A stretch of 64,000 nt of DNA from Escherichia coli (GTDB lineage Bacteria > Pseudomonadota > Gammaproteobacteria > Enterobacterales > Enterobacteriaceae), in NCBI RefSeq assembly GCF_016903815.1, contig NZ_CP069973.1, one strand, 5' to 3'. Numbering within the stretch: position 1 is the stretch's first letter; each line of letters opens with the position of its first letter. Of this stretch, positions 32,247-56,535 are shown piece by piece. Both the position numbers and the translations under genes were made by a program. The notes beneath the pieces are model-generated. The model did not search any database. It was given only the letters and a program-made list of their open reading frames with translations, and was not told the DNA's origin.

Positions 32247-33661
32247 CTACCCATCTGGTCTGGTTTCGCCAGGATTTACGTCTGCACGATAATTTCGCAC
32301 TGGCTGCCGCTTGCCGCTATTCGTCTGCACGCGTGCTGGCGTTGTATATCGCTACACCACGCCAGTGGGCGGCGCATAATATGTCGCCGCGTCAGGCTGA
32401 ATTTATCAATGCACAACTGAACGGGCTACAAATCGCGCTGGCGGAAAAAGGCATTCCTTTGCTGTTTCATGAAGTGGATGACTTTGCCGCCAGCGTCGAA
32501 ATAGTTGAACAGGTGTGCGCGGAAAATCGTGTTACCCATCTGTTTTATAACTATCAGTATGAGGTGAATGAGCGGGCGCGGGATGTGCAGGTTGAGAGAA
32601 CGCTGCGTAACGTGGTGTGTGAAGGATTTGATGACAGCGTGATCCTGCCGCCTGGCGCGGTGATGACTGGCAATCATGAGATGTACAAAGTCTTTACGCC
32701 TTTTCAAAATGCCTGGCTGAAACGGCTGCGAGAAGGGATGCCGGAGTGCGTCGCTGCGCCAAAAGTACGTAGTAGCGGAATGATAGAACCCGCGCCATCC
32801 ATTACGCTGAATTATCCTCGTCAGCCTTTCGATACTGCGCATTTCCCGGTGGAAGAAAAAGCGGCGATTGCGCAATTACGCCAGTTTTGCCAGAACGGTG
32901 CCGGAGAGTATGAGCAACAAAGAGATTTTCCGGCTGTTGAAGGTACCAGCCGTTTGTCCGCCAGCCTGGCAACGGGCGGGTTATCGCCTCGCCAGTGTCT
33001 GCATCGCCTGTTGGCGGAACAGCCGCAGGCGCTGGACGGTGGGGCCGGTAGTGTCTGGCTTAGTGAGCTGATCTGGCGCGAGTTCTACCGTCATCTGATG
33101 ACGTATTACCCCTCGTTGTGTAAACATTGTCCGTTTATTGCCTGGACGGATCGTGTGCAGTGGCAGAGCAATCCCGCACATTTACAGGCCTGGCAGGAAG
33201 GCAAAACGGGATACCCGATTGTCGATGCTGCCATGCGTCAGCTTAACAGCACTGGCTGGATGCATAACAGGCTACGGATGATTACAGCCAGTTTTCTGGT
33301 GAAAGATTTGTTGATCGACTGGCGCGAAGGCGAGCGATATTTCATGTCGCAGCTGATTGATGGTGATTTGGCAGCTAATAACGGTGGCTGGCAGTGGGCC
33401 GCTTCAACCGGAACCGATGCAGCGCCGTATTTTCGTATTTTTAACCCGACAACCCAGGGCGAGAAATTTGACCGCGAAGGCGAGTTTATCCGCCAGTGGC
33501 TACCGGAACTGCGCGATGTGCCAGGGAAAGTGGTGCATGAGCCGTGGAAGTGGGCGCAGAAAGCAGGTGTGACGCTGGATTATCCGCAACCGATAGTTGA
33601 TCACAAAGAGGCAAGGCTGCGAACGCTGGCAGCGTACGAAGAAGCGAGGAAAGGAGCCTGA
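32243..33661 (+). CDS. phr: deoxyribodipyrimidine photolyase
   Basis: 472 aa MTTHLVWFRQDLRLHDN...; photolyase FAD-binding domain motifs (WREFY, GWMHNRLRM). Confidence 0.95.
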   Translation: MTTHLVWFRQDLRLHDNFALAAACRYSSARVLALYIATPRQWAAHNMSPRQAEFINAQLNGLQIALAEKGIPLLFHEVDDFAASVEIVEQVCAENRVTHLFYNYQYEVNERARDVQVERTLRNVVCEGFDDSVILPPGAVMTGNHEMYKVFTPFQNAWLKRLREGMPECVAAPKVRSSGMIEPAPSITLNYPRQPFDTAHFPVEEKAAIAQLRQFCQNGAGEYEQQRDFPAVEGTSRLSASLATGGLSPRQCLHRLLAEQPQALDGGAGSVWLSELIWREFYRHLMTYYPSLCKHCPFIAWTDRVQWQSNPAHLQAWQEGKTGYPIVDAAMRQLNSTGWMHNRLRMITASFLVKDLLIDWREGERYFMSQLIDGDLAANNGGWQWAASTGTDAAPYFRIFNPTTQGEKFDREGEFIRQWLPELRDVPGKVVHEPWKWAQKAGVTLDYPQPIVDHKEARLRTLAAYEEARKGA

Positions 33662-33686
33662 TAAAACGCAGCGAGCGTTTTATCAG
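33662..33686. terminator. bidirectional terminator between phr and dtpD
   Basis: Hairpin aaaacgcagcgagcgtttt between convergent genes. Confidence 0.5.
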
Positions 33687-33703
33687 GCATCGGTGCTGGC
33701 CTG

Positions 33704-35368
<1,665 letters not shown>

Positions 35369-51042: not shown

Positions 51043-51241
51043 TTAAATGTTGATGCCGGGGAAATCCCCGGCTATTCAGGAAATCTTTAAAAACTGCCCC
51101 TGACACTAAGACAGTTTTTAAAGGTTCCTTCGCGAGCCACTACGTAGACAAGAGCTCGCAAGTGAACCCCGGCACGCACATCACTGTGCGTGGTAGTATC
51201 CACGGCGAAGTAAGCATAAAAAAGATGCTTAAGGGATCACG

Positions 51242-54057: not shown

Positions 54058-55275
54058 ATGAGTAGCGTAGATATTCTGGTCCCTGACCTGCCTGAATCCG
54101 TAGCCGATGCCACCGTCGCAACCTGGCATAAAAAACCCGGCGACGCAGTCGTACGTGATGAAGTGCTGGTAGAAATCGAAACTGACAAAGTGGTACTGGA
54201 AGTACCGGCATCAGCAGACGGCATTCTGGATGCGGTTCTGGAAGATGAAGGTACAACGGTAACGTCTCGTCAGATCCTTGGTCGCCTGCGTGAAGGCAAC
54301 AGCGCCGGTAAAGAAACCAGCGCCAAATCTGAAGAGAAAGCGTCCACTCCGGCGCAACGCCAGCAGGCGTCTCTGGAAGAGCAAAACAACGATGCGTTAA
54401 GCCCGGCGATCCGTCGCCTGCTGGCTGAACACAACCTCGACGCCAGCGCCATTAAAGGCACCGGTGTGGGTGGTCGTCTGACTCGTGAAGATGTGGAAAA
54501 ACATCTGGCGAAAGCCCCGGCGAAAGAGTCTGCTCCGGCAGCGGCTGCTCCGGCGGCGCAACCGGCTCTGGCTGCACGTAGCGAAAAACGTGTGCCGATG
54601 ACTCGCCTGCGTAAGCGTGTGGCAGAGCGTCTGCTGGAAGCGAAAAACTCCACCGCTATGCTGACCACGTTCAACGAAGTCAACATGAAGCCGATTATGG
54701 ATCTGCGTAAGCAGTACGGTGAAGCGTTTGAAAAACGTCACGGTATTCGTCTGGGCTTTATGTCCTTCTACGTGAAAGCGGTGGTTGAAGCCCTGAAACG
54801 TTACCCGGAAGTGAACGCGTCTATCGACGGCGATGATGTGGTTTACCACAACTATTTCGACGTCAGCATGGCGGTTTCTACGCCGCGCGGCCTGGTGACG
54901 CCGGTACTGCGTGATGTCGATACCCTAGGCATGGCAGACATCGAGAAGAAAATCAAAGAGCTGGCAGTTAAAGGCCGTGACGGCAAGCTGACCGTTGAAG
55001 ATCTGACCGGTGGTAACTTCACCATCACCAACGGTGGTGTGTTCGGTTCCCTGATGTCTACGCCGATCATCAACCCGCCGCAGAGCGCAATTCTGGGTAT
55101 GCACGCTATCAAAGATCGTCCGATGGCGGTGAATGGTCAGGTTGAGATCCTGCCGATGATGTACCTGGCGCTGTCCTACGATCACCGTCTGATCGATGGT
55201 CGCGAATCCGTGGGCTTCCTGGTAACGATCAAAGAGTTGCTGGAAGATCCGACGCGTCTGCTGCTGGACGTGTAG
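54058..55275 (+). CDS. sucB: dihydrolipoyllysine-residue succinyltransferase (E2)
   Basis: 405 aa; lipoyl domain (ETDKVVLEV), Ala/Pro linker and catalytic domain (DHRLIDG). Confidence 0.95.
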
Positions 55276-55368
55276 TAGTTTAAGCTTCACCTGCACTGTA
55301 GACCGACGTGGATAGGGTGTCGGTCTACGGTTTAAAAGATAACGATTACTGAAGGATGGACAGAACAC

Positions 55369-56535
55369 ATGAACTTACATGAATATCAGGCAAAACAACT
55401 TTTTGCCCGCTATGGCTTACCAGCACCGGTGGGTTATGCCTGTACTACTCCGCGCGAAGCAGAAGAAGCCGCTTCAAAAATCGGTGCCGGTCCGTGGGTA
55501 GTGAAATGTCAGGTTCACGCTGGTGGCCGCGGTAAAGCGGGCGGTGTGAAAGTTGTAAACAGCAAAGAAGACATCCGTGCTTTTGCAGAAAACTGGCTGG
55601 GCAAGCGTCTGGTAACGTATCAAACAGATGCCAATGGCCAACCGGTTAACCAGATTCTGGTTGAAGCAGCGACCGATATCGCTAAAGAGCTGTATCTCGG
55701 TGCCGTTGTTGACCGTAGTTCCCGTCGTGTGGTCTTTATGGCCTCCACCGAAGGCGGCGTGGAAATCGAAAAAGTGGCGGAAGAAACTCCGCACCTGATC
55801 CATAAAGTTGCGCTTGATCCGCTGACTGGCCCGATGCCGTATCAGGGACGCGAGCTGGCGTTCAAACTGGGTCTGGAAGGTAAACTGGTTCAGCAGTTCA
55901 CCAAAATCTTCATGGGCCTGGCGACCATTTTCCTGGAGCGCGACCTGGCGCTGATCGAAATCAACCCACTGGTCATCACCAAACAGGGCGATCTGATTTG
56001 CCTCGACGGCAAACTGGGCGCTGATGGCAACGCACTGTTCCGCCAGCCTGATCTGCGCGAAATGCGTGACCAGTCGCAGGAAGATCCGCGTGAAGCACAG
56101 GCTGCACAGTGGGAACTGAACTACGTTGCGCTGGACGGTAACATCGGTTGTATGGTTAACGGCGCAGGTCTGGCGATGGGTACGATGGACATCGTTAAAC
56201 TGCACGGCGGCGAACCAGCTAACTTCCTGGACGTTGGCGGCGGCGCAACCAAAGAACGTGTAACCGAAGCGTTCAAAATCATCCTCTCTGACGACAAAGT
56301 GAAAGCCGTTCTGGTTAACATCTTCGGCGGTATCGTTCGTTGCGACCTGATCGCTGACGGTATCATCGGCGCGGTAGCGGAAGTGGGTGTTAACGTACCG
56401 GTCGTGGTACGTCTGGAAGGTAACAACGCCGAACTCGGCGCGAAGAAACTGGCTGACAGCGGCCTGAATATTATTGCAGCAAAAGGTCTGACGGATGCAG
56501 CTCAGCAGGTTGTTGCCGCAGTGGAGGGGAAATAA
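55369..56535 (+). CDS. sucC: succinyl-CoA synthetase beta subunit
   Basis: 388 aa [18 protein letters not shown]... Confidence 0.95.

Follow-up and report, generated by a model that had tools for sequence, protein, structure and literature searches.

A hairpin between sucB and sucC of Escherichia coli as the apparent collapsed state of an old REP/BIME slot and a putative barrier protecting sucAB mRNA

What is a perfect palindrome doing in the short spacer between sucB and sucC, and which of the two messages, if either, does it serve? A preliminary description of the window (the whole 64,000-nt stretch of E. coli DNA that was analysed) had reported a perfect 10-bp stem with an 11-nt loop in this 93-nt spacer (sucB stop 55273-55275; sucC ATG 55369), with no T-run after it, and had suggested that it may be an RNase target or a stabiliser modulating expression of the downstream sucCD genes. 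The sequence at 55298-55328 bears out the geometry: it reads GTAGACCGAC-GTGGATAGGGT-GTCGGTCTAC, i.e., two perfectly complementary 10-nt arms with an 11-nt loop between them. The features involved are as follows.

54058-55275, + strand: sucB (odhB) coding sequence (open reading frame list; RefSeq annotation of identical DNA in E. coli genomes)
55298-55307, + strand: left arm of the perfect 10-bp inverted repeat, GTAGACCGAC, starting with the REP hallmark GTAG (55298-55301; hallmark per PMC3333891)
55319-55328, + strand: matching right arm, GTCGGTCTAC, with the iREP hallmark CTAC at its end (55325-55328; PMC3333891)
55295-55331, + strand: full RNA stem-loop predicted by RNA folding, -20.9 kcal/mol, a 15-bp helix (55295-55309 with 55317-55331) with a 7-nt loop
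55369-56535, + strand: sucC coding sequence (open reading frame list; RefSeq annotation of identical DNA)

The 15-bp RNA helix includes several G-U pairs, and the stem was predicted to form with a probability of about 1. The energy of the stem-loop at 55295-55331 corresponds to z = -5.3 against shuffled sequences, and the entire 93-nt spacer folded at -27.1 kcal/mol (z = -3.3). The window as a whole has 17 perfect inverted repeats with arms of 10 bp or longer and loops of 3-30 nt, where 1.64 would be expected from dinucleotide shuffles, so that the repeat alone is not rare and is unremarkable; the chance expectation of such a repeat is about 0.002 per 93-nt spacer. The meaning of the hairpin comes from its position and conservation, rather than from the repeat alone. 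Its exact arms have no second copy anywhere in the window. The longest inverted repeat of the window lies at 33639-33705, with 31-nt arms that are 74% complementary, and holds GCCTGATAAAACGC / GCGTTTTATCAGGC, resembling a z-type REP. Another perfect 10-bp inverted repeat (2820-2842) stands at the start of a strong match to Rfam RF01405, the STnc490 Hfq-binding sRNA (2820-2943, + strand; 146 bits against a gathering score of 56).

An 801-bp query around the locus, 100% identical to strain 7/2, found matches in 5425 of 5426 complete genomes, some of them split into two pieces, which pointed to a length polymorphism at the spacer. The hairpin allele is present in 3399 of the 5426 complete E. coli genomes, at a median of one place per genome, and at least 80% of the K-12 REP spacer in 2022; together the two alleles account for 5421 genomes (63% and 37%). 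In K-12 the spacer is 274 nt long, and its REP cluster is flanked directly by CACTGTAGACCG and TCGGTCTACGG, which correspond to the outer halves of the hairpin's arms. A 365-nt spacer with one y-z2 pair more than K-12 is found in ECCWS199, BL21 and MLI023K1, and a 275-nt form in GF4-3. When the window was aligned with K-12, ECCWS199 and SaT040, the REP-cluster alleles carried 5 or 7 REP elements in place of the hairpin core, and the clusters of K-12, ECCWS199, BL21 and E. albertii proved to be inserted precisely between ACTGTAGACCG and CGGTCTACGGT. The boundaries and the interior of the slot are as follows.

55288-55293, + strand: CACCTG motif ahead of the hairpin/REP slot, present in most of the Enterobacteriaceae spacers extracted
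55295-55305, + strand: left half of the outer clamp, ACTGTAGACCG, a base-for-base match to the BIME alleles of K-12, BL21 and E. albertii
55306-55319, + strand: allele-specific 14-nt core, ACGTGGATAGGGTG, replaced in the BIME alleles by REPs totalling about 195 or 286 nt
55321-55331, + strand: right half of the outer clamp, CGGTCTACGGT, common to the BIME alleles (alignments; K-12 fold)

Among the hairpin alleles, three loop haplotypes (the reference in 2559 genomes, T55318G in 560 and G55308A in 201) make up 3320 of 3399, and the stem is unchanged in all three. The variants sampled (55308, 55317 and 55318) all fall within the loop or core, with none in the stem or in about 100 flanking nucleotides; among sampled hairpin-allele genomes and metagenome contigs, the loop held all of the polymorphism in about 135 nt around the hairpin. 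It would be either a mutational hot spot or the sole unconstrained stretch. All 17 metagenome contigs with the arm pattern were sucB-sucC spacers, and this, with the single copy per genome, makes the hairpin locus-specific rather than dispersed. A dispersed repeat family was rejected, the arms occurring once in the window, once per genome and, in metagenomes, only at sucB-sucC.

Is the hairpin then itself a REP? In E. coli a REP is defined by a 5' GTAG and an imperfect palindrome, with a stem mismatch needed for binding by TnpA-REP; a perfected palindrome is not bound, and REPs are organised into BIMEs, whose copy number differs between strains (Ton-Hoang et al., PMC3333891). The K-12 sucB-sucC cluster (BIME-2-like, with y and z2 units) occupies the same slot as the hairpin, with the same 11-nt flanks, GTAG at its left edge and CTAC at its right; both are extragenic yet transcribed, and both show the same closing helix in predicted RNA folds. 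The REP/iREP arrays of K-12, BL21, ECCWS199, E. albertii, Salmonella and FGI57 likewise lie between the same flanks, and in position the hairpin is orthologous to these bona fide BIMEs. The hairpin has the GTAG and CTAC tetranucleotides, but in place of an imperfect palindrome of about 35 nt 3' of GTAG it has a perfect one, in which GTAG itself is paired and the mismatch that RAYT needs is missing. It measures 31 nt, against about 35 nt for each of five to seven REPs in the clusters, and has no REP body: past 8-9 nt, similarity to the y consensus is limited to GGATAGGG against GGATAAGG. A BIME has a complete REP, a complete iREP and a linker, whereas here only the outer 10 nt of each surround the 11-nt loop. 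Unlike the REPs of E. coli, a dispersed family with many copies in a genome, it was found in one place per genome in 3399 genomes, never outside sucB-sucC, and in no other copy in the window. We therefore rejected a canonical REP, given the perfect palindrome, the absent body and the single copy.

The 14-nt core at 55306-55319 has no BIME counterpart: any word that it shares with a BIME allele is shorter than 6 nt. For this reason the allele classes must differ by replacement, not by a single deletion or excision, and neither a simple deletion of the K-12 BIME nor a RAYT excision product was retained as the origin of the hairpin. From these alignments, the hairpin appears to be the collapsed (minimal) state of an old REP/BIME slot, and not a REP. 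It would be made up of about 10 nt from the outer edge of a REP (GTAG...) and as much from that of an inverted REP (...CTAC), with a short allele-specific loop in between. The preliminary description was right about the hairpin and the missing T-run, and had overlooked the REP/BIME slot of which the hairpin is the short allele; a spacer of 274 or 365 nt stands there in 37% of E. coli, K-12 among them.

Spacers of other species were taken from genome contigs and from contigs encoding SucC or SucB relatives. In the recovered Enterobacteriaceae lineages that have the slot, it always follows CACCTGC and is bounded by GTAG...CTAC, Enterobacter sp. BIGb0383 being the exception. Its interior ranges from loops of 9-11 nt (E. 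roggenkampii, Lelliottia, Citrobacter) to full BIMEs (Salmonella, E. albertii, K-12).

E. albertii and an E. albertii-like locus: 5-REP cluster, with the same outer arms as K-12
Salmonella: y REP and z iREP
Strain FGI57: y REP and z2 iREP
E. roggenkampii: GTAGACCGGC-9 nt-GCCGGTCTAC
Lelliottia: GTAGACCGGGCA...TGCCGGTCTAC
Citrobacter (three): short hairpins
Enterobacter sp. BIGb0383: TCAG...CTGA replacing GTAG...CTAC, a double compensatory change

One further contig (GCA_051550695.1, 1-2627) encodes a SucB that the source assigns to Klebsiella, although its sucB DNA shows 94.4% identity to that of E. coli, and it is closer to E. coli than Salmonella is (90%, sucC comparison); its slot is a 66-nt REP-like hairpin, and the Klebsiella label was not relied on, given the 94% identity to E. 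coli. Outside the slot, ACCTG is repeated before the sucC Shine-Dalgarno sequence in other genera (TTACCTGAAGG), where E. coli has TTAC-TGAAGG.

The pairing of the slot's flanks was scored in a gap-free alignment of 16 nt on either side, anchored on GTAG/CTAC and comprising 12 distinct related sequences. In this alignment 81.8% of cells pair, compared with 20-41% when the partners were slid by 1-3 columns; 8 of the 16 pairs change on both sides, and none of 500 shuffles reached the covariation score. Pairing extends 3 bp outside GTAG/CTAC (U-A, C-G and U-G types), which is not explicable by REP/iREP symmetry. Part of the covariation could nevertheless come from replacement of whole REP subtypes, or from template-switch 'correction' of quasi-palindromes in DNA, and not from selection on RNA. 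Both the minimum free energy and the centroid folds of the 274-nt K-12 spacer place the same 15-bp outer clamp around the REP cluster, and the short hairpins of five genera all fall at -20 to -28 kcal/mol. A strong hairpin is present in 32 of 32 Enterobacterales spacers, 27 of which have a minimum free energy with z < -2, and a T-rich tail follows the best hairpin in 1 of the 32; the more distant Enterobacterales have unrelated hairpins, mostly G+C-rich. Conservation across Enterobacteriaceae, which the preliminary description had named as a check, is thus borne out by the stem, invariant in 3320 of 3399 hairpin-allele genomes, and by orthologous hairpins with compensatory changes in other genera.

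Both forms have a history beyond E. coli. The BIME form is shared with E. albertii, whose version is about 10% diverged from that of E. coli (by eye) and which marks the BIME form as old; the hairpin form recurs in E. roggenkampii (Enterobacter) and Lelliottia. The loci recovered included none from E. fergusonii, E. marmotae or E. ruysiae. Within E. coli, sucB and sucC of 10 genomes were compared as flanking haplotypes. Per gene, only 2-5 substitutions separate two hairpin strains, O103 RM8385 and E189, from the BIME strains K-12 and BL21, against 19-28 that separate them from another hairpin strain, APEC O2:K1; some strains with the hairpin allele are more than 20 differences apart. Since the alleles do not track the flanking haplotypes, short-patch recombination would have moved both old alleles between backgrounds, and the sequences suggest that the spacer alleles spread among E. 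coli in this way.

While the identity and evolutionary context of the hairpin can be read from these alignments, its function we infer from analogy. On balance, we favour the reading that the collapsed REP/BIME slot acts, as an RNA stem-loop, as a barrier to 3'-to-5' exonucleases for sucAB mRNA. Newbury et al. reportedly observed in 1987 that a REP stabilises upstream mRNA (malE-malF). Turnover of REP-containing transcripts in E. coli depends on RNase E and the degradosome, and such transcripts are stabilised when degradosome function is impaired (PMC10100675). Like the REP-type stabilisers (malE-malF; decay intermediates needing the degradosome and RhlB), the hairpin is a stem-loop with no U-tract, placed after an upstream cistron within an operon and followed by AU-rich unstructured RNA. 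It has the structural prerequisite of this class in its -20.9 kcal/mol stem-loop, although, unlike those stabilisers, its sequence is not a consensus REP, and a stabilising role would hold by analogy. Two further features downstream of the stem enter the argument.

55332-55350, + strand: AU-rich stretch of 19 nt, TTAAAAGATAACGATTACT, predicted to be mostly unpaired and conserved across genera
55336-55379, + strand: sucC translation-initiation region, with a purine-rich Shine-Dalgarno sequence at about 55351-55360 and the ATG at 55369, and with predicted complementarity to Spot 42 sRNA

In the proposed mechanism, a very stable stem-loop would form within the sdhCDAB-sucABCD transcript. As no U-tract follows the stem, transcription would not be terminated there. 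An endonuclease would cleave in the unstructured AU-rich stretch just downstream (55332-55350), a candidate endonuclease or Hfq entry site; the stem-loop would then block 3'-to-5' exonucleases, so that the upstream sucAB part of the message may outlive the sucCD part. The hairpin would also set the sucB stop codon apart from the sRNA-regulated sucC initiation region. The earlier guess of a 'stabiliser' is plausible in this form, i.e., for the upstream sucAB message and by analogy with REPs. Full-text literature searches for sucB with Term-seq found no RNA-end results for a strain with the hairpin allele.

The suggested modulation of downstream sucCD, by contrast, found no support: the predicted accessibility of the sucC Shine-Dalgarno sequence and start codon was equal in the hairpin, 5-REP and 7-REP alleles and in an in silico deletion of the hairpin, and by the REP analogy the stem-loop would protect the upstream sucAB message. 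An effect of the hairpin on sucC translation via local structure was accordingly rejected, the predicted accessibility being the same across alleles. Pairing of Spot 42 with sucC has been reported (PMC6393394). When sub-regions of the sRNA and the spacer were compared with shuffles, the predicted duplex of Spot 42 with the sucC initiation region had an energy of -25.9 kcal/mol, and 8 of 300 shuffles were as good. The prediction pairs two single-stranded regions of Spot 42 with the leader and start of sucC, CGAUUAC facing GUAAUCG and CUGAAGGAUGGACA facing UGUUCUAUCUUUCAG; the predicted site, 55336-55379, begins 5 nt past the hairpin.

The alternative that survives best, which we regard as possible if rather unlikely, is that selfish or repetitive DNA produced the hairpin as a neutral by-product, a palindrome left by, or seeding, REP/BIME expansion and collapse, with no adaptive RNA function. 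Processes at the DNA level (RAYT activity, replication slippage or template-switch correction) would then be what keeps the palindrome perfect, an idea to which we attach the same limited credence. Such a history would fit the free turnover of the interior, from genus to genus and among E. coli strains (spacers of 93, 274 and 365 nt), the known variation of BIME copy number at one locus (PMC3333891) and a predicted accessibility of sucC initiation that is independent of allele. The near-identical flanking haplotypes that carry both alleles are likewise compatible with neutrality, and the exact form of the slot is not critical, as 37% of E. coli fare well although their interior is very different. 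Against this, neutrality does not readily account for a stable hairpin in all 32 Enterobacterales spacers, with a T-rich tail in just one, in a set that includes genera with unrelated, non-REP hairpins; nor for helix energies that stay within about -20 to -28 kcal/mol across five genera, nor for compensatory pairing that reaches 3 bp past GTAG/CTAC. Present-day upkeep of the hairpin by RAYT is in any case unlikely, as RAYT does not bind a perfect palindrome that lacks the stem mismatch (PMC3333891).

A reading at the opposite pole, which we consider improbable, is that the clamp helix (CCY-GTAG...CTAC-RGG) is an RNA cassette under selection across Enterobacteriaceae, whose interior can be exchanged between a bare loop, one REP and a BIME of several REPs, and that the coexistence of hairpin and BIME alleles in E. 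coli is a long-lived regulatory polymorphism of sucAB:sucCD mRNA stability. If true, it would mean heritable natural variation in the stoichiometry of TCA-cycle enzymes.

Slightly less credible still is that the hairpin is itself an endonuclease processing site, cut by RNase III in the stem or by structure-guided RNase E, that separates the sucAB and sucCD messages, a reading close to the RNase target of the preliminary description. The 15-bp helix is very stable, and the GG|UUU at its 3' foot resembles the RNase E preference that Chao et al. are said to have described in 2017. The helix is, however, 15 bp at most, with several G-U pairs, which is less than the two or so helical turns typical of RNase III substrates (near-continuous double-stranded RNA of about 20 bp or more). 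The operon does have a known RNase III site, 5' of sucA (PMC5371410), and the hairpin there (Cunningham and Guest 1998; PMC5371410) is likewise intercistronic within the sdhCDAB-sucABCD transcript and could likewise uncouple mRNA segments, but the helix between sucB and sucC is much shorter. An RNA-seq survey of RNase III sites names the sucA site and no sucB-sucC site, in a K-12 strain, which has the BIME allele (PMC5371410). In the sdhB-sucA spacer of the window, a 15-nt inverted repeat, AATCTTTAAAAACTG / CAGTTTTTAAAGGTT (93% complementary), lies at 51082-51126, about 120-160 nt upstream of the sucA ATG (51242) and in the general region of the reported RNase III processing.

We think it highly improbable that the hairpin reduces transcription of sucCD relative to sucAB as a leaky terminator or pause site. 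It is a stable, GC-containing stem-loop between cistrons and, like Rho-independent terminators, lies past a stop codon; internal partial terminators are documented in the operon, but between sdhB and sucA (PMC4161252). The U-tract that belongs with the G+C-rich stem-loop of an intrinsic terminator is missing: the tail reads GGTTTAAAAGA, with only 3 T after the stem, so that the absence of a T-run in the preliminary description stands, and a T-rich tail is found in only 1 of 32 orthologous spacers. A scan of the spacer for terminators and promoters called no site on either strand, and both identities were rejected; without a promoter-like site in the spacer, sucC would be read through from upstream promoters. 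A known RNA family was rejected as well, Rfam 15 covariance models giving nothing at the gathering threshold at the hairpin and only chance-level matches (E > 7) within 55000-55600.

The sucB stop codon (TAG, 55273-55275) is followed by a second in-frame TAG (55276-55278), a TAG TAG ending that is also found in K-12, E. albertii and Lelliottia, and is absent from Salmonella, Citrobacter and Enterobacter roggenkampii. Liang, Rudd and Deutscher reportedly found in 2015 that a hairpin near a stop codon, within a limit of about 15 nt, stalls ribosomes and leads to tmRNA tagging. We give almost no credence to a REP-type translational regulator of sucB that would stall terminating ribosomes in this way, in spite of the stable structure downstream of its stop, since the helix starts beyond that range (22 nt past the stop for the perfect 10-bp stem, 19 nt for the extended 15-bp stem) and a second in-frame TAG follows the first.

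REP-slot polymorphism and intercistronic hairpins of the stabiliser type are both known kinds, and the sucB-sucC hairpin is a further case. By the REP analogy, its most probable role is that of an ordinary RNA stem-loop protecting the upstream message, and not that of a new regulator of the downstream genes. The allele pair explains why the K-12 reference has a 274-nt, REP-filled spacer at an operon of central metabolism where most E. coli have 93 nt, and it reveals a REP slot whose boundaries are fixed across genera while its interior expands and collapses. It also offers a clean natural pair for asking what REP clusters add over a simple stem-loop. If the alleles do not differ in sucAB/sucCD mRNA stability, the hairpin would be an ordinary structural remnant; if they do, it would be part of a small, tractable regulatory polymorphism of the TCA cycle.
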